Of a DNA stretch of 41,470 nt, positions 18,995-41,470 are shown in pieces. This DNA comes from an archaeon. Lineage in GTDB: Archaea; Iainarchaeota; Iainarchaeia; Iainarchaeales; VGJJ01. The stretch covers positions 1 to 41,470 of the forward strand of contig JBBSWQ010000006.1 of the NCBI GenBank assembly GCA_038046225.1. Direction: 5' to 3'. The notes beneath the pieces were generated by a model. That model made no database searches. It saw only the letters and a list, made by a program, of their open reading frames with translations, and was not told the origin of the DNA. The stretch's first letter is position 1. Each line of letters starts with the position of its first letter. A program made the position numbers and the translations under genes.

Positions 18995-19585
18995 ATGGTT
19001 ACCCGTGTCCAATCGTTATTGGCATCCATCCAGGGGAAAGTGTTGGATATTGGTGGGAGCGCAGGAACACTGCATGAGGAATTGGTGCGCTTGATTCCTC
19101 CCAATGGGATTGTTTCACTGGATATCGAGATTATCCGTGTGCGGACCAATCAAGTCATTGGCGACGGACAAACGATGCCCTTCAAGGACCAATCATTCCA
19201 AAGCATACTGGCAGGGGAAGTCCTGGAACATGTCGAAAACCCCTCCGCGTTCATCCGGGAATGCTGGAGGGTGTTGAAATGGAATGGTGTGCTGTCACTG
19301 TCAACCCCCAACAAGAAATCCTGGCTCAATCGCATCACCCACTCGTATGAGATGCCCCTGCACCTCTCTCTTTTTGAACCCGGATCCATACGTAAATTGT
19401 TGGAAAACGAGGGCTTTTCTATCCAAAAAATGGAATTCTTCCCGTATACCGAAGAGAGTTCAGATGGGGCAAGGAACAAGTGGTTCTTTCCGGTGCGATC
19501 AATCATCCACCGGATTGTTCCCGATTCACTGCGGGAAGAAATGGTTGTCATCGCCCGAAAGGTCCCTCATAAAGCCGGTAATTAA
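18995..19585 (+). CDS. class I SAM-dependent methyltransferase
   Basis: VLDIGGSAGTL, FQSILAGEVLEHVENP and LKWNGVLSLSTPN. I start at ATG 18995, 2 nt after the upstream stop. The track ORF starts at 18911. Confidence 0.78.
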   Translation: MVTRVQSLLASIQGKVLDIGGSAGTLHEELVRLIPPNGIVSLDIEIIRVRTNQVIGDGQTMPFKDQSFQSILAGEVLEHVENPSAFIRECWRVLKWNGVLSLSTPNKKSWLNRITHSYEMPLHLSLFEPGSIRKLLENEGFSIQKMEFFPYTEESSDGARNKWFFPVRSIIHRIVPDSLREEMVVIARKVPHKAGN

Positions 19586-20124
19586 TTTTTTTGAGGATCC
19601 TGATGAATCGTCGAAATCCGCGAATCAGCCTTATCGAATAGAATGATGGCGATGGGCTCTAAACCCGGGAAATTCAATTCAAAGCCCTTTATCCACCCAT
19701 TCAAATGAAATGTCCGTTTCAGCGTCTCTTGCGTGTATGGCCGCAAATGGTCGGGCTGATCCCAAAATCTCTTTCCAGGAAGCGGTGCCACTATGCATAC
19801 ATATTTTTTGGATATGCGCATCAATTCATGCGCGAACGTTTCAGGGTCGTGCAAGTGTTCGATGAGATGGGCGGAATAGACCAAATCATAACTATTGCTA
19901 GGAATCCTATTTTTCAGTATATCCATTTTATGAATATCTTTGCGTGTAGGGTGCAGGTCGATTGCAGTTATTTTTTTTCCGATTTCAGTAAAATAATCAA
20001 TCATTTTTCCATTTCCCGCTCCGACATCCAATACCGAGTCAATAGGCAGATGACGAAATAAGGGATCATAAAAAAAACGATGAATCAACATCTGACGAAT
20101 GGACATACTTTTCATGAGGTGCAT
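19582..20124 (-). CDS. class I SAM-dependent methyltransferase
   Basis: VLDVGAGNGKMIDYF, YDLVYSAHLIEHLHDP and KKYVCIVAPLP. The 3' end overlaps the convergent MTase by 4 nt. TATA spacing favours a start at ATG 20106 (MSIRQ). Confidence 0.75.
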   Translation of the reverse strand: MHLMKSMSIRQMLIHRFFYDPLFRHLPIDSVLDVGAGNGKMIDYFTEIGKKITAIDLHPTRKDIHKMDILKNRIPSNSYDLVYSAHLIEHLHDPETFAHELMRISKKYVCIVAPLPGKRFWDQPDHLRPYTQETLKRTFHLNGWIKGFELNFPGLEPIAIILFDKADSRISTIHQDPQKN

Positions 20125-20207
20125 TGGAATTTTAATAGCAATATCCTCAACCTTTTTTCATTTCTCGGCCATTTGAATCAGTGCCGAATAGACCCCTTGA
20201 TAGAACA

Positions 20208-21806
20208 ATGCTCGAAGAGGGGGCTTTTTTTTATAAAGGGAAGGATGCTGAGTATCTGTTCCAAGTGATTCAAATGGGGATCAACGTTCTTCTACTCAAT
20301 CCACCCTATTTTGCCCAGTTCTCCAAGAACTCGCGGTCTCCCGCTGTCAGTAAGGGCGGGTGCGTCTACTACCCCATTTGGTTAGGATATGCTGCGGGAT
20401 CGCTGGAAATCAACGGTCATCACGTCAAACTCATCGACGCTACGGCACCTAAAGAATTGATTTCCGTGGAAAAGGTCACGGAAATGGTCAGGGAATTCGA
20501 CCCTAAATTCATCATCATGCATACCGTAACTTCATCCGTTGTCAATGACAGCAAGGTCGCCATTCACCTGAGGAAAGAATTCCCGAATAGTATCATCGCG
20601 ATGGTCGGACCCCACGTTTCGGCCGTCTCGGAAAATACTCTCACGATCGCCCCGGAAGTCGATTTGATCATGCGGAAAGAATATGATTTGACCGCGGTGG
20701 AAATGGCCAACCGAATCGAAAAAGGACATTCGTTTGAGGAAATCCAAGGGATTACTTTTCGGAACAAGGACAATGAGATCATCAAGAACCCGGATGCTCC
20801 GGATGTCCCTGCGGACTATTTGGACAAACTTCCCTTCGTCACGCAGGTGTGGGCGAAGCACCTGGAGATTAAGGATTATTTCTATCCCTCCGTGCTCTGG
20901 CCGGAAGTCACCATCATCACCGGGAGAGGTTGTCCCTTCCGCTGCACGTTCTGCGATTGGCCCCAAACGTTTACTGGACACAATTTTCGTTCGCGTAGCG
21001 TGAAGAATATCGTCGACGAGTTTGAATGGATTACAAACAATCTCCCTCACGTCAATGACATCATGATTGAGGACGACACGTTCACGGTCGACCGTGCACG
21101 GGTGAAAGAGATTTGTCAAGAGGTCATCGACCGCAAGTTGAAAATCACATGGACCGTGAACTCGCGTGCGGATGTGGATCTGGAAACCCTCAAGATTATG
21201 AAAAAAGCCGGATGCCGATTGGTGTGTGTCGGGGTCGAGAGTGCATCGCAGGAAATCCTCAACAATATCAAGAAGGGGACATCCACGCAGAAGATCGAGC
21301 AATTCTTCAAGGATACGAAAGAAGCGAATGTGCTCGTGCATGCGTGCTTCATGATGGGCAATCGGGGAGAGACGAAGGAATCCATCCAGCAGACCGTGGA
21401 ATTCGCTAAGAAACTCAATCCCGATACGGTGCAATTCTTTCCCATTATGGTGTACCCGGGGACCGAGGCCTACGAATGGGCCAAGACCAATAATTTTCTC
21501 ACTATCAAAGCGGAGAATTGGGAGAATTGGCTATTGGAAGACGGCACGCACAATACAATTGTGAGCACGGATAAGCTTACTGCGGCGGAATTGGTTGATG
21601 CGTGTGACGATGCACGACGGAACTTCTACATGCGACCGGAGTTCATCGCCGCCAAGATATGGGAAGGGATCACCACCCCTTCCGAATTCCCCCGACTTGT
21701 GAAGAGCGGAAGGACTTTTTTCAAATATCTCTTCAATACCCACGAAAAATCCTCTCTTGGGGAGACCAACCAGCGGACCTCACTGCCAGTCATCCAAGGA
21801 CCATAG
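20208..21806 (+). CDS. B12-binding (class B) radical SAM enzyme, paralog 1
   Basis: N-terminal Rossmann-like domain (INVLLLNPPYF...FIIMHTVTSS...IIAMVGPHVSA), then the cluster motif GRGCPFRCTFC and MKKAGCRLVCVGVES. Start uncertain: GTG 20181, ATG 20208 or ATG 20274. Confidence 0.85.
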   Translation: MLEEGAFFYKGKDAEYLFQVIQMGINVLLLNPPYFAQFSKNSRSPAVSKGGCVYYPIWLGYAAGSLEINGHHVKLIDATAPKELISVEKVTEMVREFDPKFIIMHTVTSSVVNDSKVAIHLRKEFPNSIIAMVGPHVSAVSENTLTIAPEVDLIMRKEYDLTAVEMANRIEKGHSFEEIQGITFRNKDNEIIKNPDAPDVPADYLDKLPFVTQVWAKHLEIKDYFYPSVLWPEVTIITGRGCPFRCTFCDWPQTFTGHNFRSRSVKNIVDEFEWITNNLPHVNDIMIEDDTFTVDRARVKEICQEVIDRKLKITWTVNSRADVDLETLKIMKKAGCRLVCVGVESASQEILNNIKKGTSTQKIEQFFKDTKEANVLVHACFMMGNRGETKESIQQTVEFAKKLNPDTVQFFPIMVYPGTEAYEWAKTNNFLTIKAENWENWLLEDGTHNTIVSTDKLTAAELVDACDDARRNFYMRPEFIAAKIWEGITTPSEFPRLVKSGRTFFKYLFNTHEKSSLGETNQRTSLPVIQGP

Positions 21807-21822
21807 AACTCATTTCTCCCTA

Positions 21823-22884
21823 ATGACTACGCGGACGCGTGAAATTATGCCCCGGAAAACCAAGAAAGAAGGACTGACCGCAAGCATCATCATCCCTGCA
21901 TACAACGCCGAATCCTCCCTCAACGAATGCTTGGATGCCTTGCTCCAACAGACGACCCATCCAGAAGAAATTATCGTGGTGGATGATGGGAGTAGGGATT
22001 CGACCCCCCAAATCGCTAAATCCTATTCCCTCGTAACACTGGTTTCCCAAGAGAACCAAGGACCCGCTCATGCACGGAATGCGGGAGCCCAAAAGGCGTT
22101 GGGAGACATAATCCTATTCATCGATAGCGACTGCATTGCGGAAAAGGAATGGCTGGAGGAGATGCTCAGGCCATTTGATGATGCGAACATTGTAGGGGTA
22201 CAGGGGGCCTATAAGACCCGACAGAAAGCTCTCACCGCCCGGTTCGACCAATTGGATATCGAATACCGATACGAGGGGATGAAACGGAAGAAAAAATTGG
22301 ATTGGATCGGCACTTACAGCGCGGCATATCGGAAAAAGATTTTCATTGACGAAAAGGGTTTCGACGAGACATTCCCGCGAGCCTCGGGAGAAGACAGCGA
22401 GTTCTCCTATCGTCTCGCCGAGAAAGGAATGGCATTAAAATTCGCCCCGAATGCAATCGTATACCATACGCATCCGAGTTCACTTATGCACTATCTGCGC
22501 GTGAAATTCTTCCGCGCCTATTGGAGGACCCGCATGTACGTGAAGCATCCTGGGAAAAGCGTCCAGGACAGCTATACCCCTCACATGCTGAAGATAAACT
22601 TCTTTGTGGGGGGATTGTTCCTGCTGGTTCTGACCTATCTGGCCGTGCGGCTCCTCACCTCCGATCTTTCACGCGCATTGATAGTGAGCGAAATTGTGCA
22701 GCTAATGTATTTTCTAATCGTAATAACTATGGTTATCGTGGTCGCGCTGTATGATTTCCTTCTGTTAGTTGCACGAAAGGACCTTGCCCTGGTACCCTTT
22801 GCGATCGCCCTCACGTTCCTACGTTCCATCGTATTCGTCCTAGGAGCTGGATTTGGATTATTGGATCGGAGGGTATGGAAATGA
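21823..22884 (+). CDS. family 2 glycosyltransferase with C-terminal TM helices
   Basis: SIIIPAYNAESSLNECLDALLQQT, IIVVDDGSRDST, ARNAGAQKA, LFIDSDCIA and GEDSEFSYR, with about 4 hydrophobic helices at the C-terminus. Start ATG 21823. Confidence 0.85.
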   Translation: MTTRTREIMPRKTKKEGLTASIIIPAYNAESSLNECLDALLQQTTHPEEIIVVDDGSRDSTPQIAKSYSLVTLVSQENQGPAHARNAGAQKALGDIILFIDSDCIAEKEWLEEMLRPFDDANIVGVQGAYKTRQKALTARFDQLDIEYRYEGMKRKKKLDWIGTYSAAYRKKIFIDEKGFDETFPRASGEDSEFSYRLAEKGMALKFAPNAIVYHTHPSSLMHYLRVKFFRAYWRTRMYVKHPGKSVQDSYTPHMLKINFFVGGLFLLVLTYLAVRLLTSDLSRALIVSEIVQLMYFLIVITMVIVVALYDFLLLVARKDLALVPFAIALTFLRSIVFVLGAGFGLLDRRVWK

Positions 22885-23999
22885 AAGCCAAACGCCTGAG
22901 CATCCTCCATGTGGGAAATCATACCATTCCATGTATCGGGGGCATCGAAAACGTCATTTGGGAGAGCAGCAAGGAGCAATTAAGGGCGGGGAATGGAGTG
23001 GAAATAGTGGTCTTTAACACCTGCACGAAAGGAACCACGCTCCCCGCGTACGAGGAAAAGGAAGGGGTGAAAATCCACCGAGTTCCACAAAAGGGTTTTT
23101 CGTTCTATCGCGTCCCTCCATTGCCTGAATTTCTTCAATATGCGCAGGGAAAAGACATTGTCCATGTCCATGGCTTCGGAGGATGGTTAGAAGCGGCCTG
23201 CAGGACTAAAAAAAAACATTCAGCCCTCATCGTGTTAAATACGCACGGGGGATTTCGTCACACCACTGAAAGGTCCATTCTCAAGTGGGTATACCAAACC
23301 TTTTTCCTTCCTTCGTTATTGAAAAAAGTGGACGGGATTATCTGCGACAGCCCTTCGGATCAAACCTTTGTGGAGAATTTTTCCTATAAAACCAAAATAA
23401 TTCCAAATGGAATATCCTCAGAGTTTTTTGCCCAGGCTAAAACCAAAAAAGACAAGAATCAATGGCTATTTGTGGGTCGATTGTCGCGGAATAAGCGCGT
23501 CGATCGGTTGCTGGAAACTCTCGCTCACTATCCTTCCTTCCAAAAAATAACCTTACACATTGTGGGAGATAATTGGGAAGGACTACAAAAGGGACTGGAA
23601 CAGCGGGCCAAAGAATTAGGAATCGATTCTCGGGTCCGCTTTCACGGAAAAGTGTCGGATGAGACGCGGATGAAGCTATTCGCGAAATGTGGCATATTTC
23701 TTTCCGCCTCCGAATACGAAGGATTTGGTATTTCAGCTATTGAAGCGACCGCAGCCGGATGCATCCCGGTGCTGAATTGTATCCCTTCTTTTGAACATTT
23801 CGCGTCGCAGACTAAAGGGATTATAATAACCGATTTTTCCAATCCAATCAATGCGGCTAAGGACATCCAAAAGGTCATGGATGCTCGTGCCTCTTCAATT
23901 CAATTCATGAAAAATGAATTAAGGGCGTTTGCGGCGGAATATGATTGGAAAATAATTGTAGGGAACCAGTTGGAGTATTACCGGAGACTATCCCCATGA
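22875..23999 (+). CDS. GT-B glycosyltransferase (GT4 / Glycos_transf_1 family)
   Basis: LSILHVGNHTIPCIGGIENVIWE N-terminal domain and the C-terminal E-x7-E region SASEYEGFGISAIEATAAGCIPV. GGAGGG lies just upstream. Confidence 0.85.
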   Translation: MEMKAKRLSILHVGNHTIPCIGGIENVIWESSKEQLRAGNGVEIVVFNTCTKGTTLPAYEEKEGVKIHRVPQKGFSFYRVPPLPEFLQYAQGKDIVHVHGFGGWLEAACRTKKKHSALIVLNTHGGFRHTTERSILKWVYQTFFLPSLLKKVDGIICDSPSDQTFVENFSYKTKIIPNGISSEFFAQAKTKKDKNQWLFVGRLSRNKRVDRLLETLAHYPSFQKITLHIVGDNWEGLQKGLEQRAKELGIDSRVRFHGKVSDETRMKLFAKCGIFLSASEYEGFGISAIEATAAGCIPVLNCIPSFEHFASQTKGIIITDFSNPINAAKDIQKVMDARASSIQFMKNELRAFAAEYDWKIIVGNQLEYYRRLSP

Positions 24000-25321
24000 C
24001 CCTTTTCACACGCGTTTTTTCCGTTCTTTCATTTGGCACCCTCCAGGTCATTTTTTCCAAGCTCATCAGTTTCATTAACTTTGCCATTTTAGTGCGATTA
24101 CTCACACATGAGGAAATTGGAATCATTGGATTGGCGGGGGGATACATGGCTCTTTTGGGTTTCCTGATGGTATTGCCCGAGAACGTATTCATCCGGGATT
24201 TTAAAAAGATGCAGGGGCGATTAAACGAATACATCTCCTCATTCTTCTTTTTTGGAGTGATGCGCAGTCTGGTATTATTTGTTGTGGCGGGGGGGATGGC
24301 ACTCCATCTTTCCTCCCTCCAGTCGGATCCCCGATTGACCCTCTACTTCCTCTTGTTAGTGGGAACCACTCTTCTCAACAGTCTGGTGGGCCCATTTCGG
24401 GAAGCGTTTTATGGGGCGTATCGCCAGGCCCGAATCACGTTTGTGGATGTCATTTCTAACTTATTGCTATTGACCTTGATTGGATTATTATATTTCCAAC
24501 GCGATGTGATTGTGTATGGATGGCTCCAACTGGGAGTGGCCATGTTAGGGTTGGTATGGTGGATTTGGAATGCCCATCGCCACCTGCATTTTTCTTTTTT
24601 TCCCCCCACCTTTCAATTAGCCATTGACTCTCTGCGCAATTTTTCCATCTGGAATCACCTGGCAGGATCGGTCATTCGATTGGTATATCAGATTGACATT
24701 GTCATCCTGGGTTTTTTCGTAGGATTAGGGGTGGTAGGGGATTATGCAGTAGCACTAACCTTGGCAAACGTATTTTTTGTTTTCCCGCAAATGATCCAAA
24801 AAGTATTATCGCTTAGCCTTTCCTCCGTTGAGGATAAACGTACACTTGAAAATATGCTTGGAATCGCGGTGCGCTACAACACGCTTTTCTCCGTGGCCCA
24901 ATGGGGGGCCTTTTTGATCATGGGACCATGGCTTATTTCGCTTTTGGGACCAGAAAGCCCCGCGCAGATATGGACTTATTCTATTTATTTGGTGTCTGGA
25001 GTGACTTTGTTCAACATTGCCCGGCCTTGGTCCTCTTTAGCAGTGTCTAAAATTCCTCCTAAAGACTTCTTTTTTAAGCTTTTTTTTCTCCCCAGTATGG
25101 TAGCTGTTCCCATCTACTGGTATGCGGCTGCTCAATTAGGGGCATTAGGTGTGGCGAAAGCCAATTTGGTGACATTTTTTATTTTAGGTGGATGGCTGAT
25201 CATATACATGCACATTCATCTCAAGCTCATTCCGCGAATTTTCTATTTTTCACCGCACGAAAAACATTTTTTAGGGAAAATACAACATGTATTTCATTCT
25301 AGGGGGATGGGGAAGCGATGA
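23996..25321 (+). CDS. Wzx/AglR-like oligosaccharide flippase (MOP superfamily, Polysacc_synt-like)
   Basis: 441 aa, about 12 or more hydrophobic helices. The N-terminus FGTLQVIFSKLISFINFAILVRLLTHEEIGIIGL is typical of Wzx-type proteins. ATGA overlaps on both sides. Confidence 0.68.
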   Translation: MTLFTRVFSVLSFGTLQVIFSKLISFINFAILVRLLTHEEIGIIGLAGGYMALLGFLMVLPENVFIRDFKKMQGRLNEYISSFFFFGVMRSLVLFVVAGGMALHLSSLQSDPRLTLYFLLLVGTTLLNSLVGPFREAFYGAYRQARITFVDVISNLLLLTLIGLLYFQRDVIVYGWLQLGVAMLGLVWWIWNAHRHLHFSFFPPTFQLAIDSLRNFSIWNHLAGSVIRLVYQIDIVILGFFVGLGVVGDYAVALTLANVFFVFPQMIQKVLSLSLSSVEDKRTLENMLGIAVRYNTLFSVAQWGAFLIMGPWLISLLGPESPAQIWTYSIYLVSGVTLFNIARPWSSLAVSKIPPKDFFFKLFFLPSMVAVPIYWYAAAQLGALGVAKANLVTFFILGGWLIIYMHIHLKLIPRIFYFSPHEKHFLGKIQHVFHSRGMGKR

Positions 25322-26067
25322 AACGACTCTTTACGACCGAGCAGCAGCGGCAAGAAGACGAATATGTGTTCCCGTATCATTATCGGGGATTGTTTTCCGA
25401 GGAACAAGAGATGTGGGACCTGGAATATTTGGACTACCTGCATGTGGTTGGCAAAAAACTGTCCCCTTTTAATGGACAAAAAATCCTCGACGTAGGATGC
25501 GGGGATGGGCGATTATTTTATGAATTAAGACATGAAAAAATTATACCATGGGGAGTGGACCATTCCCATCGGGCGATTCAGTTTGCTCAAGGCTTCAACC
25601 CTCACGTCCAGTTTCGAGTAGGAGGAATTGAAGTCCTCCCTCCAAAAGAAATGTTCGACCAGATTACCATGATTGAAGTACTGGAACACATCCCCCCCGC
25701 TCAAGTGGCAAAAGTGGTAGGCGCCGTAGCTAGACGACTCAAGAAGGGTGGAAAACTGCTGGTGACCGTTCCTTCCATTCGAAGAAAGGTCATTCCGAAA
25801 CACTACCAACATTTCACCGAGAGAACTTTACGCGATGTTCTCGGGACTCATTTACACGTTCAAAGCGTGTATGGATATGGAAAGATGCCAGGGAAACGAT
25901 TGTTCAATTTATTCCGGAGGATCACCTTGTTGTTTTTGCCGATGAAGGATATTCTGCCCTTTTTTCAATGGGGGAAGCGATGGACCAGACTGTGGTATCG
26001 AACACACTTATCAATCGGAAAACCCGATGAATGTACGGGGCTTTTAGCCGAGTGTATTGCGCTTTAG
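25318..26067 (+). CDS. class I SAM-dependent methyltransferase
   Basis: ILDVGCGDGRLFYEL, ITMIEVLEHIPP and LKKGGKLLVTVPS. Confidence 0.8.
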   Translation: MKRLFTTEQQRQEDEYVFPYHYRGLFSEEQEMWDLEYLDYLHVVGKKLSPFNGQKILDVGCGDGRLFYELRHEKIIPWGVDHSHRAIQFAQGFNPHVQFRVGGIEVLPPKEMFDQITMIEVLEHIPPAQVAKVVGAVARRLKKGGKLLVTVPSIRRKVIPKHYQHFTERTLRDVLGTHLHVQSVYGYGKMPGKRLFNLFRRITLLFLPMKDILPFFQWGKRWTRLWYRTHLSIGKPDECTGLLAECIAL

Positions 26068-29648: not shown

Positions 29649-29653
29649 ATTGC

Positions 29654-33881: not shown

Positions 33882-34561
33882 CGGATGTTTCCGTGGATTA
33901 TCACGAACAATCCGCTTTCTGGGAAAAGAAACGAGACAAGCGCCTCCCCACCCATCCTGCCGTGGAAGCTTTTGCAAAACCCAAAGTGGATGCCATCGCT
34001 CGTTTGATCGGAATCACCTCTCAAACGATGCTATTGGACGTTGGATGCGGTACGGGTTTTTTCACCCATTACTGGAAAGAGAAAACTCCCCATGTGGTTG
34101 GAATGGATTTTAGTCATGAGATGCTGGCAAAAAATAACGTTCCCGACCTCGTCCGGGGAAGTGCAGAAGCTCTTCCATTCGATGATCAATCCTTCGACGT
34201 AGTGTTCTGTTCCAATCTCCTGCATCATGTGGAAAGCCCCGTGGACGTGGTGAAGGAAATGGCGCGCGTCACCAGGCGGTATGTGGTGTTATCCGAACCC
34301 AACGCAAGGAACCCGCTCATGAATCTCTTTTCACGCGTCGTCAAAGAAGAAAACGGCGCCCTGAAATTTGATCCGGGGTATTTGCAGAGCATCGGGAACA
34401 ATGCCGGCTTGCGAGAAGTGTATCTTGGAGAGGAAGGGAGCATTGTTCCCAACAAGACTCCGGGATGGGCCGTTCCGATATTGAAACCATTCAACAAGCC
34501 TATGGAGAGGGGATTCTACATCGTTTATGTCGGCGACCGTCTTGATACGGTCGAATATTGA
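33878..34561 (+). CDS. class I SAM-dependent methyltransferase (Methyltransf_11-like)
   Basis: LLDVGCGTGFFTHYW, FDVVFCSNLLHHVESP and RRYVVLSEPN. ATGA overlap with the upstream gene. Confidence 0.82.
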   Translation: MTDVSVDYHEQSAFWEKKRDKRLPTHPAVEAFAKPKVDAIARLIGITSQTMLLDVGCGTGFFTHYWKEKTPHVVGMDFSHEMLAKNNVPDLVRGSAEALPFDDQSFDVVFCSNLLHHVESPVDVVKEMARVTRRYVVLSEPNARNPLMNLFSRVVKEENGALKFDPGYLQSIGNNAGLREVYLGEEGSIVPNKTPGWAVPILKPFNKPMERGFYIVYVGDRLDTVEY

Positions 34562-34617: not shown

Positions 34618-36165
34618 ATGACTGCGTCCGCCTTGGAATTGCCCATTCAATCTTCCACGAATGTACCAACGTTCCGCTTTCTCTTGGTCAATCCCCCATT
34701 TCTCACGTCGTTTGGGATCAAGGAATCGGGAGGACATGCCATGCCACTAGGTTTGATGTATATCGCTTCCTACGTGCGAAAATATGTCCCTTCCATTCAA
34801 CCAAAAATACTGGATTGTGAACTCGATGCGATGACGGATGAACAAATCCGGGAAAAATTCATTCGAGAAAAAGCCGATTTTGTAGTGATGACAGTGCCCA
34901 CTCCCACCGTGAATGCGTGCAAGCGCATATCGGACATGGCCAAGGAAGTCAATCCCCACTGTAAAGTGGTCTGGGGCGGACTACACCCGACGGTATTTCC
35001 TAAAGAATGTGTCTCCCATCCCTCCGTGGATTTTGCCGTAGTGGGGGAAGGAGAACAAGTCATCCGAGAATTGGTGGAGCACGTATTGGACGGGAAAAAA
35101 GATTTCTCGGACGTGAAGGGAATCGGGTACAAGGACGAGCATGGTGGCGTGTTTCAAACGGGGATGCAGGAATTAATCCAGGATATCGATTCCATTCCCT
35201 TTCCCGCATACGATTTGATTGATGTGAAACGGTACCACACGGCTCCCTCGAAAAAACTATCCAATAGTGAGAGCACGATGAACATCATGACCTCGCGCGG
35301 CTGTGCGTTTGACTGCATCCACTGCATCTCCAAAACCACGTGGAGGAGAAAAATGCGCTTCCGTTCCCCGAAGAATGTGGCGGACGAAATGGAGTATTGC
35401 GTCAAAACATTTGGAGTGAAGGAATTCAATTTCATGGATGATTTGTTCGGAATCAATGAGAAGAGAGTCATTGACGTGTGTGCGGAAATAACGCGCAGAA
35501 AATTGGATGCACGATGGGTGGCGTTCGCACGAACGGATACGATTACCGAGCCCATGCTCCGCGCCATGAAGGAAGCGGGGTGCGTGAAAATTAGCATGGG
35601 AATAGAGAGCGGAAATCAGGACGTATTGAACAAGATGAGAAAATCCCTCCGCTTGGATCAAGTGAAAAAAGGAATCAAGCTCATGAAAAAACACGGATTC
35701 GAGGTTCATTCTTCCTTCATGCTGGGAAATGTGGGGGACACGGATGAGACGATTCAAGATACGATCCGCTTCGCCAAGGAATTGGATCTGGACAATGCGA
35801 CCTTCTTCATCACGTCTCCCTATCCAGGGACGGACTTGTATGGCATTTCCATGGAACAGGGATTTGTCACGAGTCAAACTCCGTGGGAGGACTTTATCCC
35901 TCTTGGAGACCGACAGCCCTTACTCGTGCAGGGTGCCGTGCCCTATGAACGACTAATCCAATACCAGAAGCAGGCCTTCAAGGAATTTTATCTACGACCA
36001 TCCGTCCTTGTGAAAAAATTCTTCAAAATACGCTCGGTATCGGACATTCGTACGCTCGTGGAAGGACTGACCGTATTCAAAGGGATCATGGAGAAGAAAG
36101 AAGAAAACCCGGACCCTCCCACTGCTGTCGCCAAAACCCGTGAAGAAAACGCTACTGGGGTCTAA
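34618..36165 (+). CDS. B12-binding (class B) radical SAM enzyme, paralog 3
   Basis: FRFLLVNPPF...ADFVVMTVPTPT...VVWGGLHPT, cluster motif TSRGCAFDCIHC, RFRSPKNVADEME and MKEAGCVKISMGIESG. Confidence 0.87.
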   Translation: MTASALELPIQSSTNVPTFRFLLVNPPFLTSFGIKESGGHAMPLGLMYIASYVRKYVPSIQPKILDCELDAMTDEQIREKFIREKADFVVMTVPTPTVNACKRISDMAKEVNPHCKVVWGGLHPTVFPKECVSHPSVDFAVVGEGEQVIRELVEHVLDGKKDFSDVKGIGYKDEHGGVFQTGMQELIQDIDSIPFPAYDLIDVKRYHTAPSKKLSNSESTMNIMTSRGCAFDCIHCISKTTWRRKMRFRSPKNVADEMEYCVKTFGVKEFNFMDDLFGINEKRVIDVCAEITRRKLDARWVAFARTDTITEPMLRAMKEAGCVKISMGIESGNQDVLNKMRKSLRLDQVKKGIKLMKKHGFEVHSSFMLGNVGDTDETIQDTIRFAKELDLDNATFFITSPYPGTDLYGISMEQGFVTSQTPWEDFIPLGDRQPLLVQGAVPYERLIQYQKQAFKEFYLRPSVLVKKFFKIRSVSDIRTLVEGLTVFKGIMEKKEENPDPPTAVAKTREENATGV

Positions 36166-36171
36166 CAGGGG

Positions 36172-37776
36172 ATGGAAAAGCACATGACAACTAAAATCCC
36201 TTTGTGGGTATGGGCACTCATCCTTGGAATCCCGCTGCTCGCGAGTGTTCCCTTGCTGGCGGGGTATGCATCTTCCTCTCCTCCCGAACAGGTTTTCATG
36301 GGATTCGATTTCATTGACGATTTCCACTATTATGGGAATTACATCTACTCGTACGCCCAAAACCCAGCGGATTTGCTCATTCCCAATCGGGCTACCTCTG
36401 AAAGTCAAGAAGGGCGGTTTTTCTTTCCTTACTTCTGGATCACGGGAATCGTGAGCACCGGACTGGGAATCCCTCTAGCCTTGGCGCTGATACGCTACCT
36501 CACCGGAGTCATTCTCCTTTTTCTCGTGTGGAAACTCTTGGATTATTTTTTTCCCGATCCCTTCTGGAAAAAGACCGCATTTGTATTGACCTGTGTGGGA
36601 GCCGGATTCGGGTGGATTACTAAACTGCTGGGAGCATTCATTCCGGCGCTGGGAAACTTGTATTCTACGGACTTGACCTACTCGCTGGGATATACCTTGT
36701 TCGGCTATCTCAGTTTTCCCCTCGCCATCGCGGGAGAAGCATTGTTTGTGGCTGGATTATATTCCCTTTTTCGTTACTGGGAAAAGAAAGACGGGAAATA
36801 CCTACTCTTCTTCGGAGCGAGTCTGGCGGGCATGTTTTTCGTGCACCCCGTGAGTGCGGTCACATTCTTTCCCGTGTTGATTGGGGGAGGAGTCTTATAT
36901 CTCATTCAGCATCCGCAGAAAACATCCGTTCGTGAATTATCTAAACCCTTTTTTGGAATGGCGATTGTTTTGATTGCCATCGGGTCATATTTGCTATGGG
37001 CATTACAGGATCCCGTTTTTCAATCCGTATTCTTCTCATACGGACTATGGCAACGGAGTGAGAGTCCCTTTTGGTGGATCCTAGGATATGGATTCATCCT
37101 CCTATTTGCCTTGTTGGGAGTTCGCACGCTCAAATTGGAAAACAAACACGTGAACGCGTTCTTCTGGAGTTGGCTGCTGGTCGTATTAGTCTTAAGTCTT
37201 AATCCGTGGAAAGGACTACGGTTCCAGCACGCGCTGTTTTTGCCGTTGGTTATTCTAGCTACGACCGGAATACGCTCTGCTTGGGAATGGATCCAGAAAA
37301 GCCCTATCCATAACTGGGTAAAGGAACCGAGAACGGTTGTCGGGCTGATTGTATTGGTCATGCTTCCCGGGGTGCTTTTTACAATTACCAACCACGCGGA
37401 GGATGTACAAGATCCATCGTTTCACAGCGGTCCTTTCCTATCGCAGGGGCAGATTGACGCATTGGCATTTCTGGAGAAACAAAAAACGGGAATCGTGTTG
37501 TCAAACTATACGATGGGAAACAACCTGATTTGGATGACTCCCCACTATGCGTACGTGGGACACTGGAATCAGACCACAGGAAGGGAGGATAAGGAGAAAA
37601 AAATAACTGCCTTTTTCTCGGGAGAAATGACCGTTGAAGAGGCGGAACTTTTTTTGCGCGAAGAAAAAATAACCTATATCCTGCGGGAAGGGGATGAAAA
37701 AGTGCCACCGCTGGAAAGAAGTGAAACCATGTATGAAGAAGGAAATATCTCCATCCATCGGGTGAATGCCCCATGA
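36172..37776 (+). CDS. polytopic membrane protein with soluble C-terminal domain; candidate GT-C / degenerate STT3-like paralog
   Basis: 534 aa, about 11-13 hydrophobic helices. First-loop acidic motif GFDFIDDFHYYGN. The ~130-aa C-terminal domain aligns by eye to the AglB WWDxG region but reads SNYTMGNN instead. Confidence 0.55.
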   Translation: MEKHMTTKIPLWVWALILGIPLLASVPLLAGYASSSPPEQVFMGFDFIDDFHYYGNYIYSYAQNPADLLIPNRATSESQEGRFFFPYFWITGIVSTGLGIPLALALIRYLTGVILLFLVWKLLDYFFPDPFWKKTAFVLTCVGAGFGWITKLLGAFIPALGNLYSTDLTYSLGYTLFGYLSFPLAIAGEALFVAGLYSLFRYWEKKDGKYLLFFGASLAGMFFVHPVSAVTFFPVLIGGGVLYLIQHPQKTSVRELSKPFFGMAIVLIAIGSYLLWALQDPVFQSVFFSYGLWQRSESPFWWILGYGFILLFALLGVRTLKLENKHVNAFFWSWLLVVLVLSLNPWKGLRFQHALFLPLVILATTGIRSAWEWIQKSPIHNWVKEPRTVVGLIVLVMLPGVLFTITNHAEDVQDPSFHSGPFLSQGQIDALAFLEKQKTGIVLSNYTMGNNLIWMTPHYAYVGHWNQTTGREDKEKKITAFFSGEMTVEEAELFLREEKITYILREGDEKVPPLERSETMYEEGNISIHRVNAP

Positions 37777-38738
37777 AGCGCGTGCTGTCTTTTTTTTTCC
37801 AACCATCAATCAGAGCACTGTTGGCCTTGCTGCTGCTTGGCGGGATTATCCTGCTGGCGAATCCCTTGCAGTCCCTCCCCCTCCTTTTGGAGGCAGGACC
37901 GGTTCTCCTGCTCTGGCTGGCAGTGGGATTCGGGGGAATTATCCTGACTAACGCATTAGCGGTGTGGTGGGTTCTCCGGACGATGAAGAATATTCCCTTG
38001 AAACGGGTCCTGCTAAATTACACATACAGTTGGAGCACGGAATTCTATTTTCCTGGAAAACTGGGAATGTTTTCCCTCGCGTATTTTCTCCAAAAAGAAA
38101 AAGTGGAAGTGGGGGAGAGCGTGGCCTCCATCCTATTGATCAAAATGACCATGCTCGTGTGGCTTTTCCTCTTGAGTTTATTGGCTATTGGAAGTTTGCT
38201 TACGACCAACGACTTCCTCATTTATTCGGGAACCCTGATTGCCGTAGTCGGAGGACTATCCTTCCTTTTTTTGACAGAGCGGGGAAGGCATTTCATCCGA
38301 TATGGTGTATTGGGAAAGCACGCGGTCCACTTCATCGGTTTTTCCAGACTGGTAAAGACCATGCTCGGCGATCCGATGAAATGGATCGGGTTGTTCTTCC
38401 TCGTCTTCTTGAGCATTTTCATCAATGGAATAATGGTCCAAGGCCTATTCGCGGAGGTGGGATATTCCCTCGACCTATTGACCGTCTTGGGGGTGGTTTC
38501 CTCAACCATCCTCGTGGGATTAATCCCAATCTCCCTGAACGGATTGGGAGTAAAGGAAGGAGCGCTAATTGTCTTCATGGGATTGCATGGTATACCGACC
38601 GAAATTGCCGCAAGCGTGGGATTGCTCAGCACGACGACGGGATACGTCCTGTCATTGCTCATCATGGCGCTTGTCCTGAAAGAGATTCCCTCGACCATTT
38701 GGAAAGGAGGAATCCCTCATGCGGGTCGCCCTGCTTAG
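37773..38738 (+). CDS. UPF0104 / LPG-synthase-TM-like 'flippase-like' membrane protein
   Basis: 321 aa, about 8 hydrophobic helices. General layout and the C-terminal LNGLGVKEGALIVFMGLHGI resemble the flippase-like domain often fused to archaeal or actinobacterial GT2 enzymes. ATGA overlap upstream. Confidence 0.5.
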   Translation: MKRVLSFFFQPSIRALLALLLLGGIILLANPLQSLPLLLEAGPVLLLWLAVGFGGIILTNALAVWWVLRTMKNIPLKRVLLNYTYSWSTEFYFPGKLGMFSLAYFLQKEKVEVGESVASILLIKMTMLVWLFLLSLLAIGSLLTTNDFLIYSGTLIAVVGGLSFLFLTERGRHFIRYGVLGKHAVHFIGFSRLVKTMLGDPMKWIGLFFLVFLSIFINGIMVQGLFAEVGYSLDLLTVLGVVSSTILVGLIPISLNGLGVKEGALIVFMGLHGIPTEIAASVGLLSTTTGYVLSLLIMALVLKEIPSTIWKGGIPHAGRPA

Positions 38739-39837
38739 TCCACGCACCCCCCGCGCTCACGCGGCAGGAATCGAGCAGAATATTTTGCACGTTTCACAAT
38801 ACTTGTTGAGAAAAGGAGTATCGGTCGAAGTCTTTTCGACCGCGGAAAAACCGCGTGGAAAATACTCCTTGCATGGAATACCCGTTCGAGAGTTTTCGGC
38901 ATTCGCCCCCGCGGATAATTATTTTTTTTCCATCCCCTTATTTCAATCCCTGAAAAAATGGGACGGGAACATCATCCACTGCAACGGGTACAACAACCTC
39001 GTTTCCGTGTTGGGAATCACGGCTAAGAAAAAGGGGCAGAAGCTCGTATTCACGCTCAACAGCAGCGGCTCCTCTTCCATGTTAAGAGGATTGCTGCACA
39101 TTCCCCTTGCGTGGTTTTACCGTATCCATGCAAAAAAGATTGATCACCTAGTATGCGTCTCGAGATGGGAATACGAAAAACTGGCTCCCTTATTCGGATT
39201 GAAAAAAGAAAACGTGTCCATTATCCCGAATGGCATTTCACTGACAGAATTCGCCAAAAAGGGGAATCGAAAAAGTGGAAAAATAGTGAGCGTGGGGAGA
39301 TTGGTGAAAAACAAGGGAATGCATCGCCTCATCAACGCATTTGGTCGAGTTCACGAGGAAATGCCGGAGACCGAACTCCACATCGTGGGGGATGGTCCTG
39401 CGCGGCATGACCTTGAACAACAGGTCCACGCACAGGGCTTGACCAACGCGGTTTTTTTCCATGGAAACATCGGATTCGAGGATCGAGAAAAACTACTCGT
39501 GCATTATCGCACGGCGTCCGTTTTCTCCCTACTCACCGATTATGAATCACAAGGCATTGTTTTTGCCGAGGCGGCCGCGGCAGAATTACCGATGGTGATT
39601 CCCGACAAAGGGGTCATGCACGAATACGTTGAAGCGGGTCTTGCGCAAGGAGTGAAAAATGTCGATGACTCTGAAGAAGTGGCTCGTGCCCTGATCCATG
39701 CCCTCCGATCAAAACCCTCCGCTGCCAAACTAAAATCTCTCAAATTTTCCAAATCCTTCAAACCTCTTATTTGGGACTGGGAAGAGGTGGGAGAAGCCGT
39801 GCATCAGTTATACCAACACTTAGTGGAGGAATCCTAA
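38719..39837 (+). CDS. GT-B glycosyltransferase (GT4 / Glycos_transf_1 family)
   Basis: MRVALLSPRTP...GIEQNILHVSQYL N-terminal domain, IVSVGRLVKNKGMHRLI, and TDYESQGIVFAEAAAAELPMV (E-x7-E region). Confidence 0.82.
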   Translation: MRVALLSPRTPRAHAAGIEQNILHVSQYLLRKGVSVEVFSTAEKPRGKYSLHGIPVREFSAFAPADNYFFSIPLFQSLKKWDGNIIHCNGYNNLVSVLGITAKKKGQKLVFTLNSSGSSSMLRGLLHIPLAWFYRIHAKKIDHLVCVSRWEYEKLAPLFGLKKENVSIIPNGISLTEFAKKGNRKSGKIVSVGRLVKNKGMHRLINAFGRVHEEMPETELHIVGDGPARHDLEQQVHAQGLTNAVFFHGNIGFEDREKLLVHYRTASVFSLLTDYESQGIVFAEAAAAELPMVIPDKGVMHEYVEAGLAQGVKNVDDSEEVARALIHALRSKPSAAKLKSLKFSKSFKPLIWDWEEVGEAVHQLYQHLVEES

Positions 39838-40512
39838 ATGTCCCTCCAAAAAGAAGAATACTCTCCCTTCATCGAGTTTGACCAAAAAATGTCGGCCAAG
39901 CTCAAGCCCCAATTGGAGGAATGGTTTTCCGACATGCGCGGAAAAAACGTTCTAGATGTGGGATGCGGTTCCGGAGAAGTGGGAAGTTTGCTGATCGGTC
40001 GCATGGACGTATATGGGGTCGATGAACAACCCCACGCCTTGAAAATCGCACAGAAAAAAGGAATCACGGTCACATCATCCTCCCTCGAGGAAAAACTGCC
40101 TTATCCGTCTGAATTTTTTGACAACGTGATATGCAAGGACGTGTTCGAACACATGGTCCATTCCCACACCCTCTTAGTGGAAATTCATCGCGTCCTCAAA
40201 AAAGGAGGAAAACTGTACGCGCACGTTCCCAACCAGTTTACTTTGCTGGATCGCCTCCTGATACTATTCGGGAGAAGCATGGTGGTGAAGCGCTGGTTCT
40301 CCGGAAGTGAGGAATGGAATTTTCCCCACCTCCGGTTTTTCACCCATTCGGGATTTAGGAGATTCTTAGAGGGCAATGGATTCGTAATCGATAAGGATTG
40401 TTCCGACTTGTGGAGTTATTCTGTGGGAATGGGAATTACTACGCGGATTTTGAGCGGACTATCGCCCGGACTATTTTCCCCCGGATTCACGTTCACTTGC
40501 TCGAAGAAGTAG
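39838..40512 (+). CDS. class I SAM-dependent methyltransferase
   Basis: VLDVGCGSGEVGSLL, DNVICKDVFEHMVH and LKKGGKLYAHVPN. The start directly follows the upstream TAA. Confidence 0.82.
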   Translation: MSLQKEEYSPFIEFDQKMSAKLKPQLEEWFSDMRGKNVLDVGCGSGEVGSLLIGRMDVYGVDEQPHALKIAQKKGITVTSSSLEEKLPYPSEFFDNVICKDVFEHMVHSHTLLVEIHRVLKKGGKLYAHVPNQFTLLDRLLILFGRSMVVKRWFSGSEEWNFPHLRFFTHSGFRRFLEGNGFVIDKDCSDLWSYSVGMGITTRILSGLSPGLFSPGFTFTCSKK

Positions 40513-41470
40513 CCGCTGTTTCAGGGGCGGGAACGATGATTTTCTTGGTTTCTTTTTCTTCGGCCTTGGAAGAATAGGGGGAAACATTCTTGGAAATCAT
40601 CCGAGGCAACCGGTCGAACACAAGGAATTTTCCGAGCGTGAAAAAGGACTTGACATAATCCGCCTTACGAGGACTCCGTGCCATCTGGTGCAAAATCATG
40701 CGCATGGAAGAACGAGGAGTCAATTGCTGTAAGGGAGAATTGAAGCGAATGTTATCCTCGGATACCAATCGATCCAAATCGATGGAGTGCTTGGCCACGA
40801 TGAATTTTGGAGGCAGTTTCCACTCTGCTTCCTTGAAATAATGATAATCGTCCTTGCCGCTCGCCACCTCATCATAGATTTGGGATCCGGGATAGGGGGT
40901 CATGAGTCCAAAAGACACGGTGGTCGGTTTTATCTCCGCGATCAAGTCCTGATTGGCACGGACATCTTCTTCCGTTTCGCCGGGAAGATTATACATCATG
41001 TTGGCGAACGTCCGAATGCCTAGTTTTTTGCATAAGTCAAATGCCTTATAGATCGTTTCCACCTTGCAATTCTTGTTGACCGCATCCAACATGCGCTGAG
41101 ACCCCGATTCCACTCCAAAATCGATCTGGATGCATCCCGCTTTCTTCATCCACGTCAATAGTTCTTCATCCACCTTGTCCACGCGTGTTTCTGCTCCCCA
41201 TACGAATGGGATTTTTCGGGCGATGAATTCTTTGCAAATCTCGATCACGTGATCTTTCCAGACGCAAAAATCATCGTCATAGAAATAAATCCCATCCACC
41301 TTGTATTTTTTTACCAATAATTCCACCTCGTCCGCTACCATCTTGGCAGAACGGAAACGGATGGGTTTTTTGGTCTCATTGTAGCGCCAAACGGAAGGAA
41401 TCGCACAAAAGGTGCACCGTGCAGGGCACCCGCGGGAAGCGAATACGTACATGGATGCCAGTGGAAAATA
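40493..41470 (-). CDS. radical SAM enzyme, paralog 4 (5' end and presumed B12-binding domain lie beyond the window)
   Basis: Cluster motif ASRGCPARCTFC, RFRSAKMVADEVE and MKKAGCIQIDFGVESG align with paralogs 1-3. The frame remains open upstream of the track ATG (41452) to the window end. The 3' end overlaps the convergent MTase by 20 nt. Confidence 0.85.
   Translation of the reverse strand, partial: YFPLASMYVFASRGCPARCTFCAIPSVWRYNETKKPIRFRSAKMVADEVELLVKKYKVDGIYFYDDDFCVWKDHVIEICKEFIARKIPFVWGAETRVDKVDEELLTWMKKAGCIQIDFGVESGSQRMLDAVNKNCKVETIYKAFDLCKKLGIRTFANMMYNLPGETEEDVRANQDLIAEIKPTTVSFGLMTPYPGSQIYDEVASGKDDYHYFKEAEWKLPPKFIVAKHSIDLDRLVSEDNIRFNSPLQQLTPRSSMRMILHQMARSPRKADYVKSFFTLGKFLVFDRLPRMISKNVSPYSSKAEEKETKKIIVPAPETAATSSSK

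Follow-up and report, generated by a model that had tools for sequence, protein, structure and literature searches.

Class B-type radical SAM enzymes of four families in a glycan-assembly island of an Iainarchaeota archaeon

The island and its four radical SAM enzymes

We analysed a stretch of 41,470 nucleotides (the window; contig JBBSWQ010000006.1 of GenBank assembly GCA_038046225.1, forward strand) in which four genes for radical S-adenosylmethionine (SAM) enzymes of the B12-binding type, called paralogs 1-4 in the order of their positions, lie among genes of glycan assembly. The host is an archaeon of the Iainarchaeota (DPANN), with the nearest homologs in Candidatus Diapherotrites / Iainarchaeum metagenome-assembled genomes, and a Hainich groundwater assembly contains the same DNA, which points to a groundwater archaeon. 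The beginning of the window is core archaeal chromosome (the L11-L1-L10-L12 operon, FtsZ, KsgA, Rpo4, TBP and 5S rRNA). The glycan-assembly island begins at about 11.1 kb, after these core genes, and runs to the end of the window (11.1-41.5 kb). According to Pfam, the genes near its start encode AglB/STT3, an AglH-like Glycos_transf_4 protein, Alg14, an Alg13::GT2 fusion, an epimerase/dehydratase and a nucleotidyltransferase, and it contains six class I methyltransferases, four GT4 and two GT2 glycosyltransferases, a PMT_2-type GT-C, a Wzx-type flippase and an LPG_synthase_TM protein. All domains by which an Agl gene island is recognised (STT3, AglB_core, Glycos_transf_4, Alg14, Alg13/GT2, GT2, GT4 and Polysacc_synt_3) were found, the Agl gene order is kept in Iainarchaeia, and two relatives (loci L006 and L009) have a near-identical island with synteny over its whole length.

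The island genes are tightly packed, with many 4-bp overlaps. The widest gaps measure 149, 104, 56 and 40 bp and therefore leave no room for precursor-peptide genes, in agreement with an earlier note on this DNA, which had seen no precursor-peptide open reading frame (ORF) and had judged a cluster for RiPPs (peptides that the ribosome makes and that are modified after translation) unlikely. The GC content is 0.45-0.505 in the glycan island (10001-41470) and 0.50-0.54 in the housekeeping part (1-10000); together with the close bacterial homologs of the radical SAM enzymes and GT2s described below, the lower value is consistent with horizontal exchange of island modules.

The four enzymes carry the cluster motifs GRGCPFRCTFC, SRGCPEKCTFC, SRGCAFDCIHC and SRGCPARCTFC (paralogs 1-4, respectively), each of which contains CxxxCxxC, and match the Radical_SAM domain (PF04055, cut-off 29.5 bits) with 83.1, 86.7, 89.0 and 85.8 bits. 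The B12-binding domain (PF02310, cut-off 32.1 bits) was found in the three complete proteins, paralogs 1-3, with 47.7, 60.1 and 78.4 bits; for paralog 4, whose N-terminus lies beyond the window, it is present in the full-length L006 ortholog (527 aa, 79% identical). A search of the source assembly for sequence past 41470 yielded only a duplicate contig of 2,995 bp. By domain content, the enzymes thus belong to class B, as the earlier note had proposed. The four ORFs and their motifs were read exactly as it had described them, and the Rossmann-like N-terminal domain that it saw in the three complete proteins corresponds to the B12-binding domain. The downstream blocks that it listed (RFRSxKxVADE or FRSRSVKNIVDE, MKKAGC/MKEAGC and GVES/GIES) are all shared in the alignment. 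Its term 'paralogous' is appropriate for ancient family membership but not for recent paralogy. Pairwise identity is only 25-36% between the radical SAM enzymes and 19-33% between the methyltransferases, so neither set consists of recent duplicates, and on these values we rejected a recent tandem duplication of a module of the two genes. Within the class B superfamily, sequence comparison places the four enzymes in the HpnJ/BchE-like part, as members that separated anciently and that each lie in a different sub-operon. Homolog searches show that paralogs 1-3 each represent a widespread family of their own, and three relatives indicate the same for paralog 4.

Comparison with the curated NCBIfam models included paralogs 1-3 and the L006 ortholog of paralog 4. 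The HpnJ model (TIGR03471, cut-off 577.6 bits) was matched over its full length by paralog 1 with 429.1 bits, and by paralogs 3 and 2 and the paralog 4 ortholog with 223, 156 and 171 bits. BchE (TIGR02026, cut-off 481.35 bits) was the best model for paralog 3 (237 bits), and the paralog 4 ortholog scored 177 bits. Among class B enzymes, HpnJ and BchE are the two classic cases that do not methylate. Identity with BchE was rejected, since the scores are below the cut-off and no photosynthesis genes are present. Membership in the AprD4 diol-dehydratase family (NF033070) was likewise rejected, at 66-114 bits versus a cut-off of 500. The same applies to RiPP-maturation enzymes, for which ApyD (NF050148) and rSAM_ocin_1 (TIGR03975) gave 81-153 bits versus cut-offs of 750 and 282, in addition to the insufficient intergenic space. 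With all NCBIfam scores below cut-off, no curated or characterised family claims these enzymes.

To assess cobalamin binding, we used the published definition of the base-off cobalamin motifs (PMC9204698), namely a downstream G/A-x-S/T motif, GG on strand β4 and GE on helix α5. In the alignment, G(G/A)xH and (G)EGE can be read in paralogs 2 and 3 and in the paralog 4 ortholog. Paralog 1 shows MVGPHVS together with KEYD, a GE-motif variant that its family conserves; an S/T-rich β3 motif is present in all aligned radical SAM enzymes. The AlphaFold (AF2) model of paralog 1 (mean predicted local distance difference test, pLDDT, 77.7; predicted template modelling score, pTM, 0.81) has its best fold match in AprD4 (target-normalised TM-score 0.76), followed by TsrM, MgmA, OxsB, CysS and TokK, and AprD4 is also the top PDB sequence match for paralogs 1 and 3 (68-95 bits). 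AprD4 is a radical SAM sugar 1,2-diol dehydratase acting on paromamine, which binds no cobalamin although it lies inside the class B similarity network. Since the nearest solved relative binds none, a Pfam B12-binding match is no proof of cobalamin binding.

Gene partners of the four families

Paralog 1 probably starts at position 20274 (MGINVLLLNPP...), because its homologs align from there; the ORF described by the earlier note exists, but its start at 20208 is probably not the true one. The family comprises 3,672 matches (E<=1e-20), identity being 50% or higher in DPANN archaea and Desulfobacterales. In a survey of one genome per GTDB species, at least 541 genomes contained a relative, and the best 80 (44-92% identity) were used, with neighbours annotated by homology to window proteins. 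These 80 belong to Iainarchaeia, Desulfobacteria, Anaerolineae/Chloroflexota, Thermodesulfovibrionales, Nitrospiraceae, Fibrobacterota, Planctomycetota and Hydrothermarchaeota. A gene similar to the GT2 at 21847 lies downstream on the same strand in 60 of 73 loci (43/49 archaeal and 17/24 bacterial), and on either side in 47/55 archaeal and 23/25 bacterial loci, whereas a methyltransferase is next to the radical SAM gene in 29/55 archaeal loci and in none of the 25 bacterial ones. Hence, the conserved partner of paralog 1 is the downstream GT2, not a methyltransferase. A second B12-binding radical SAM gene within 8 kb was found in only 8 of the 80 loci. The usual archaeal order is AglB>AglH>Alg14>Alg13GT2>...>rSAM1>GT2>GT4 (rSAM1 denoting the paralog 1 gene; rSAM2-4 are used likewise), the pair coming directly after the first four genes.

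Identity with HpnJ and HpnI was considered for the window proteins and for relatives that come from four lineages of bacteria and from one archaeon of the Hydrothermarchaeota, and rejected. The paralog 1 orthologs of these relatives scored 431-466 bits with the HpnJ model, below the cut-off, and the partner GT2s in the window and five relatives best matched MftF/EpsD (about 136 bits), never HpnI. In addition, no hopanoid genes (hpnI GT2, hpnK or shc) were present in the window or in the loci examined. These scores and GT2 partners indicate that the paralog 1 family is a sister of HpnJ rather than HpnJ itself. An Anaerolineaceae locus (L060, 9485-11092) encodes a 535-aa protein in which the partner GT2 and a polyprenyl glycosylphosphotransferase (EPS_sugtrans, 273 bits) are joined. 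A 534-aa partner GT2 of Chloroflexi (L071, 9489-11093), of the same size, may be another such fusion, and in Desulfobacterales (L003) a Bac_transf gene follows the partner GT2. The L060 fusion and the Desulfobacterales gene place the paralog 1-GT2 pair in the assembly of polyprenyl-diphosphate-linked glycans.

Paralog 3 belongs to a family of 2,626 matches, with identities of 42-50% in Patescibacteria and Elusimicrobia. Its orthologs in L006 and L009 are 75-77% identical, and both loci keep the order GT2-unk597-MT3-rSAM3-GT-C (unk597 is a 597-aa protein and MT3 a methyltransferase); L006 alone continues as in the window, with LPG_TM-GT4-MT4-rSAM4. In L007 and L092, the genes GT2-unk597-MT-GT-C-rSAM4-rSAM3 are contiguous, so that paralogs 3 and 4 form part of one module. 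A metagenome scan for the paralog 3 family yielded 66 loci, 39 of which are at least 6 kb long and were used for counting. Other B12-binding radical SAM genes were present in 37 of the 39, a methyltransferase in 35 (adjoining the radical SAM gene in 23), a gene similar to the GT2 at 31231 in 28, and LPG_synthase_TM also in 28, directly beside the focal radical SAM gene in 17. As an internal control, LPG_synthase_TM occurred in 9 of 72 loci of the paralog 1 survey and was adjacent in none. Paralog 3 is therefore part of a recurrent cassette of a GT2, several B12-binding radical SAM enzymes, a methyltransferase and LPG_synthase_TM. Outside the window, the LPG_synthase_TM family adjoins paralog 3/4-type enzymes or is fused to them. 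Two fusion proteins of 797 aa were found, one on a Patescibacteria contig (L008, 9440-11833), with a radical SAM half nearest to paralog 4 (38% identity), and the other, nearest to paralog 3, in L121 (9452-11845).

A representative bacterial cassette reads Wzy_C / Bac_transf-GT2-(nitroreductase)-rSAM-rSAM-MT-rSAM3-LPG_TM / ~570-aa polytopic protein / Wzx, in which the additional radical SAM enzymes belong to further subfamilies and are not orthologs of paralogs 1, 2 or 4. The proteins of about 570 aa, with 8-11 predicted transmembrane (TM) segments, recur beside LPG_synthase_TM or radical SAM genes (L104:10397-12115, L108:10403-12112, L106:10550-12265, L116:13183-14889 and L008:13842-15566). 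Pfam gave no match for that of L104, there was no precomputed Pfam match for that of L008, and hhalign detected no homology to the GT-C, TM490 or unk597 proteins of the window (best probability 1.9%). Bacterial cassettes also hold a nitroreductase-family protein, a SPASM-domain radical SAM enzyme and a class V aminotransferase (L104:3757-4401; L129:6341-7345 and 9986-11155), which hint at further sugar chemistry, e.g. amino sugars.

The GT2 at 31231 is most similar to polyprenyl-phosphate glycosyltransferases (AglJ, dolichyl-phosphate hexose transferase, ArnC and PpgS), although its NCBIfam scores (AglJ 123.7 bits, cut-off 325; dolichyl-phosphate hexose transferase 89.2; ArnC-type 77.9) are all below cut-off. 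Together with the PMT_2-like GT-C, it suggests the layout of a polyprenyl-phosphate-sugar relay with LPG_synthase_TM as the flippase candidate and the radical SAM enzymes and methyltransferases as a tailoring layer.

Micrarchaeota and Aenigmarchaeota have relatives of paralog 2 with about 70% identity; for those of Omnitrophica, Elusimicrobia and Dehalococcoidia, the value is about 42%. Its operon, TM490-GT4-GT4-rSAM2, converges on Wzx-MT2, an order kept in L009, L013, L019 and L021. The membrane protein TM490 gave a weak NCBIfam match to glycopolymer formation (26.7 bits, cut-off 150). In one Aenigmarchaeota locus and one Elusimicrobiota locus, a paralog 2-like gene lies beside an unlabelled protein of about 445 aa and a methyltransferase, and the Elusimicrobiota locus combines three B12-binding radical SAM genes with a MurJ/Wzx gene, GT4s, a PMT_2 gene and sugar-nucleotide genes.

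All six class I methyltransferases pass the Pfam cut-offs (Methyltransf_11/23/25), which bears out the report in the earlier note of one flanking each radical SAM enzyme and a sixth at 11138. The pairing is real in the window, yet the repeated two-gene module that the note proposed was not recovered as such: the pairs are not duplicated units, the neighbour is inconstant for paralog 1 (see above), and MT2 beside paralog 2 is retained only in L009 (48% identical ortholog). Only in the paralog 3 family is the pairing widely conserved. The firmest partner of MT3 is unk597. The unk597 family, of conserved proteins of 590-597 aa, has 1,667 representatives at E<=0.001 and 636 at E<=1e-30. C-terminal fusions to class I methyltransferases (P0361, P0364 and P0426) or to a GNAT (P0510) occur in some relatives, and the fusion proteins show weak pectate-lyase-like (Pec_lyase) matches at the N-terminus. 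Searches of Pfam (with four orthologs) and of the PDB by sequence and by profile returned nothing for unk597, and its single-sequence AlphaFold model (pLDDT 41.6) was too poor for use. It is probably a sugar-binding partner of MT3.

Table 1. Features of the glycan-assembly island, in window coordinates (aa, amino acids; TM, transmembrane segments)
Feature	Position	Strand	Support and remarks
MT0, class I SAM methyltransferase	11138..11902	-	Methyltransf_23 53.5 bits; divergent from aglB; MT<AglB> layout also in L013
AglB/STT3 oligosaccharyltransferase	11937..14210	+	STT3 73.3 bits; AglB_core-like 29.6 bits
AglH-like polyprenyl-phosphate GlcNAc-1-P transferase (Glycos_transf_4)	14295..15395	+	PF00953 116.1 bits
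Alg14-like subunit	15399..15857	+	Alg14 60.3 bits
Alg13-like (Glyco_tran_28_C) fused to GT2 domain	15851..17263	+	Glyco_tran_28_C 40.6, Glycos_transf_2 91.6 bits; L002 ortholog 63% identical
NAD-dependent sugar epimerase/dehydratase	17270..18253	+	GDP_Man_Dehyd 179, Epimerase 164.5 bits
Sugar-1-phosphate nucleotidyltransferase	18217..18993	+	NTP_transferase 177.6 bits
MT1a, class I methyltransferase	18995..19585	+	Methyltransf_11 49.8 bits; 68% identical ortholog upstream of rSAM1 in L002
MT1b, class I methyltransferase	19582..20124	-	Methyltransf_11 48.0 bits; MT> MT< rSAM1> order also in L017
Paralog 1, B12-binding/radical SAM	20274..21806	+	HpnJ 429.1 bits (577.6); ORF extends upstream to 20208/20181
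GT2, ~4 C-terminal TM, conserved partner of paralog 1	21847..22884	+	Glycos_transf_2 129.5 bits
GT4 glycosyltransferase	22875..23999	+	Glycos_transf_1 100.7 bits
Wzx-type flippase (Polysacc_synt_3)	23996..25321	+	Pfam 43.5 bits
MT2, class I methyltransferase	25318..26067	+	Methyltransf_23 58.5 bits
Paralog 2, B12-binding/radical SAM, last gene of minus-strand operon	26077..27501	-	HpnJ best, 156 bits
GT4 glycosyltransferase	27526..28608	-	Glyco_trans_4_4 42.6 bits
GT4 glycosyltransferase	28605..29648	-	Glycos_transf_1 64.6 bits
TM490, polytopic membrane protein (~7 TM), possibly GT-C-like	29654..31126	-	No Pfam match; L006 and L009 orthologs 47% identical
GT2, polyprenyl-phosphate-sugar synthase type (AglJ/DPM/ArnC-like), 2 C-terminal TM	31231..32115	+	GT2 102.5 bits
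unk597, 597 aa, no predicted TM	32109..33881	+	No Pfam/PDB match; directly precedes MT3
MT3, class I methyltransferase	33878..34561	+	Methyltransf_11 85.6 bits; orthologs in L006, L009, L007, L106
Paralog 3, B12-binding/radical SAM, canonical GGxH + GEGE	34618..36165	+	BchE 237, HpnJ 223 bits
GT-C-type membrane glycosyltransferase (PMT_2-like, ~9 TM)	36172..37776	+	PMT_2 26.8 bits (26.1); orthologs in L006, L009, L007
LPG_synthase_TM (flippase-like) membrane protein	37773..38738	+	Pfam 74.1 bits
GT4 glycosyltransferase	38719..39837	+	Glycos_transf_1 92.5 bits
MT4, class I methyltransferase	39838..40512	+	Methyltransf_11 64.7 bits; L006 ortholog 60% identical
Paralog 4, C-terminal 325 aa, N-terminus beyond window	40493..41470	-	Radical_SAM 85.8 bits

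Some further features were seen in the window. Alg14, of the eukaryote/EpsEF type, is a separate gene followed by Alg13::GT2, a fusion that is conserved in Iainarchaeia and often duplicated in relatives. An isolated 5S rRNA gene (10990-11106, +; Rfam 72.7 bits) is situated between the genes for TBP and for the methyltransferase at 11138; there are no 16S or 23S rRNA genes near it and no tRNA genes in the whole window. The TBP protein (9929-10900, +; two TBP repeats, 164.5 bits) carries at its C-terminus roughly 110 additional aa, among which Asp, Glu and Lys are extremely abundant. An extra GT2 with C-terminal TM segments is located outside the island (3608-4591, -), between the ribosomal-protein operon and ftsZ. 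Two ORFs (6747-7559, + and 17-862, +) have no Pfam match; one protein is Cys-rich with an N-terminal hydrophobic segment and probably secreted, and the other combines a TM segment in its centre with a tail rich in Lys.

Possible function of the enzymes and alternative explanations

The most probable explanation, to which we assign a probability of roughly 0.6, is that the island serves the assembly of lipid-linked glycans of the N-glycosylation type and that the radical SAM enzymes carry out radical tailoring of polyprenyl-linked sugars in surface-glycan assembly. The earlier note's idea of glycan or lipid-carrier tailoring gains from the embedding of these genes in a conserved AglB/AglH/Alg14/Alg13 lipid-linked glycan island. 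The linkage to glycosyltransferase, flippase-like and methyltransferase genes, for which it had suggested a neighbourhood survey, recurs in the L009 and L006 islands and in bacterial multi-radical-SAM glycan cassettes. Its archaeal, aglB-centred focus proved too narrow, as the same families also occur in bacterial sugar clusters.

From the domain identities, conserved gene linkages and fusions that were observed, we infer the following substrates, order of steps and chemistry. In module A (17270-26067, +), AglH and Alg14/Alg13-GT2 would begin a dolichyl-diphosphate-linked glycan, the nucleotidyltransferase and the epimerase would provide the nucleoside diphosphate-sugar, and the TM-anchored GT2 (21847) would attach a sugar. 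On this lipid-linked intermediate, paralog 1 could abstract a sugar hydrogen by means of a 5'-deoxyadenosyl radical, with a rearrangement or a C-alkylation as the outcome. The GT4 would then lengthen the glycan, the methyltransferases would O-methylate it, Wzx would flip it and AglB would transfer it. In module B (31231-41470), the DPM/AglJ-like GT2 (31231) would charge dolichyl phosphate with a sugar, which unk597 with MT3, paralog 3, paralog 4 and MT4 would modify on the cytoplasmic face; the LPG_synthase_TM protein would flip the tailored sugar, and the GT-C (36172) would transfer it outside the cell. In module C (26077-31126, -), paralog 2 would be coupled with two GT4s and a polytopic membrane protein.

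By sequence, the enzymes could catalyse rearrangement, C-methylation or deoxygenation. A non-methylating rearrangement of the HpnJ type seems slightly more likely for paralog 1, and for paralogs 2-4 cobalamin-dependent C-methylation appears most likely. The C-methylated sugars envisaged by the earlier note are thus possible but only one of several outcomes, as the nearest curated relatives, HpnJ and BchE, are non-methylases.

In a bolder and distinctly more tentative proposal, DPANN archaea, bacteria of the Candidate Phyla Radiation (CPR) and further uncultivated bacteria have cassettes in common that were exchanged horizontally. Polyprenyl-linked sugars would be the substrates of the several class B radical SAM enzymes in each cassette, which would be physically coupled to a flippase-like membrane protein, and the N-glycans and surface polysaccharides would come to contain sugars that are carbocyclic (cyclitol-type, ether-linked), C-alkylated or both. 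If this were true, such sugars would represent glycan building blocks, and a biosynthetic logic, undescribed for any cell-surface glycan.

Several points weigh against tailoring of polyprenyl-linked sugars. LPG_synthase_TM is known from phospholipid flipping, not polyprenyl-sugar flipping. The evidence for all four families consists of sequence and gene context, and none of the radical SAM enzymes (paralogs 1-3 and the L006 ortholog of paralog 4) reached an NCBIfam equivalog cut-off. Paralog 1 carries the KEYD variant in place of GE, its partner GT2 is not HpnI-like, and AprD4, the nearest solved structure, is without cobalamin. TM490 has no family match, and the GT-C assignment is marginal (26.8 versus 26.1 bits). 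The neighbour counts, based on homology to window proteins (phmmer E<1e-5 or hidden Markov model) in pattern-selected loci, which include metagenome contigs without taxonomy, are for that reason approximate and possibly biased. Finally, reviews state that non-methylating and methylating class B enzymes cannot be distinguished by sequence or structure.

The foremost of the rival explanations, though still unlikely, is remodelling of membrane-lipid head groups: the TM-anchored GT2s would glycosylate archaeol or other lipids, possibly scavenged from a host, the radical SAM enzymes would make a cyclitol/calditol-like or alkylated head group, and LPG_synthase_TM would flip the lipid. It draws on HpnJ as the best curated match of paralog 1, on the fact that HpnJ (hopanoids) and Cds (glycerol dialkyl glycerol tetraethers, GDGTs) both work on lipid-bound sugars, and on the lipid-flippase-type LPG_synthase_TM adjoining or fused to paralog 3/4-type enzymes. 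Furthermore, the named homologs come mostly from DPANN archaea and from CPR, Elusimicrobia or Omnitrophica bacteria, and DPANN and CPR lineages are generally without full lipid synthesis. However, the archaeal paralog 1 sits straight after AglB-AglH-Alg14-Alg13, in bacteria a polyprenyl-phosphate glycosylphosphotransferase is joined to its GT2 partner or encoded behind it, Bac_transf, Wzx and Wzy_C genes are found in the paralog 3 cassettes of bacteria, and no lipid-core biosynthesis genes were seen in any locus. We also regard as doubtful the possibility that the N-terminal Rossmann domains bind no cobalamin, as in AprD4, and that the enzymes are radical sugar dehydratases/deoxygenases or epimerases producing deoxy or epimerised sugars. 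The sequence and fold matches to AprD4, its position in the class B network and the absence of the canonical GE motif from paralog 1 would fit, but the NCBIfam AprD4 scores are lower than those for HpnJ and BchE, all three complete proteins pass the Pfam cut-off for the B12-binding domain, and paralogs 2-4 have the GGxH and GEGE motifs.

Two other explanations have very little probability. Chance co-location, in which the radical SAM enzymes would be housekeeping enzymes of RNA, protein or cofactor modification lying among glycan genes, could appeal to weak similarity to the MiaB/RimO, Elp3 and HemN families; it is very improbable, given that the linkage to GT2, methyltransferase and LPG_synthase_TM genes is conserved across phyla and in both domains, with gene fusions. 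Least probable of all is a RiPP or secondary-metabolite cluster, in which class B enzymes would methylate a peptide or small molecule and the glycosyltransferases would decorate the product. The similarity to ApyD and rSAM_ocin_1 on which it would build is far below the cut-offs, the gaps leave no space for a precursor, and there are no genes for a protease, a cyclase, leader recognition, a nonribosomal peptide synthetase or a polyketide synthase, every neighbour being a glycan-assembly gene.

In antibiotic, cofactor and lipid pathways, class B radical SAM enzymes are known to carry out difficult reactions; we came across no account of them as regular components of the assembly of cell-surface glycans or N-glycans. 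Full-text literature searches retrieved nothing linking radical SAM enzymes to AglB/N-glycosylation, to DPANN/Diapherotrites glycosylation or to Patescibacteria/CPR polysaccharide cassettes, and the word 'radical' is absent from a 2024 review of archaeal N-glycosylation. This agrees with the earlier note, which knew of no multi-enzyme tailoring layer of this kind in archaeal N-glycosylation. The finding thus concerns known enzyme classes in a widely conserved pathway context for which we found no published description. It defines three gene associations: the HpnJ-sister radical SAM enzyme with its GT2 (at least 541 species genomes, both domains), the GT2/multi-radical-SAM/methyltransferase/LPG_synthase_TM cassette with its fusions of radical SAM enzymes to a flippase-like protein, and a family of about 1,700 proteins fused to methyltransferases. 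If the enzymes modify lipid-linked sugars, DPANN and CPR glycans would hold sugar structures that current glycomics would not anticipate, on surfaces that probably mediate the episymbiotic lifestyle of these organisms. The bacterial orthologs offer a tractable entry for assigning chemistry to HpnJ-like enzymes.

Comparison with known systems

The closest parallel to paralog 1 is HpnJ of the HpnJ/HpnI/HpnK system for bacteriohopanetetrol cyclitol ether; its proposed reaction is a ring contraction of glucosamine in a hopanoid-bound sugar. The alignment of paralog 1 spans the full HpnJ model, with the same B12-binding and radical SAM architecture, both genes are found beside a membrane-anchored GT2, and the proposed substrate is in both cases a lipid-bound sugar. 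Paralog 1 differs in having neither hopanoid genes nor HpnK nearby, its context being AglB/AglH or Bac_transf. Cds, the calditol synthase of Sulfolobus acidocaldarius, is an archaeal radical SAM enzyme for which an analogous contraction of a lipid-bound hexose to a cyclopentyl polyol has been proposed. Set beside the island enzymes by description only, it is a mechanistic analogue for a non-methylating sugar rearrangement; it works on GDGT head groups in acidophiles, whereas the island belongs to a groundwater DPANN archaeon and its enzymes are encoded in an AglB island.

GenK/GenD1, MoeK5 and Fom3 share the class B architecture and are C-methyltransferases of sugars or sugar-like substrates, and the substrate of MoeK5 is a lipid-linked saccharide. 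They function in actinomycete antibiotic pathways, not in cell-surface glycan islands, and their curated models gave no match to the island enzymes. In a stringent similarity network, HpnJ groups with MoeK5 and Fom3. AprD4 resembles the island enzymes as the best PDB match in sequence (paralogs 1 and 3) and structure (paralog 1), in its sugar-ring substrate and in its Rossmann-like N-terminal domain, but it binds no cobalamin, whereas paralogs 2-4 keep cobalamin-type GG/GE motifs, and the NCBIfam scores are low.

For the methyltransferases, a precedent exists in Halobacterium salinarum, in which the archaeal glycan is transiently methylated at the dolichol-linked stage; a similar step could explain those of the island. 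No radical SAM enzyme takes part in that methylation, for which the source names no responsible enzyme. Module B can be compared with the ArnC/ArnD/ArnEF/ArnT, GtrA/B/C and AglD/AglR/AglS relays. It differs from them in its flippase candidate, which is LPG_synthase_TM and not GtrA, ArnEF or AglR, and all similarities are below equivalog cut-offs. To our knowledge, tailoring by B12-type radical SAM enzymes and methyltransferases occurs in none of these relays. Module B seems to follow their logic, since its GT2, which has C-terminal TM segments, precedes genes for tailoring enzymes, a flippase-like protein and a GT-C, and a Patescibacteria relative contains an ArnC/ArnD-like pair of GT2 and Polysacc_deac_1.

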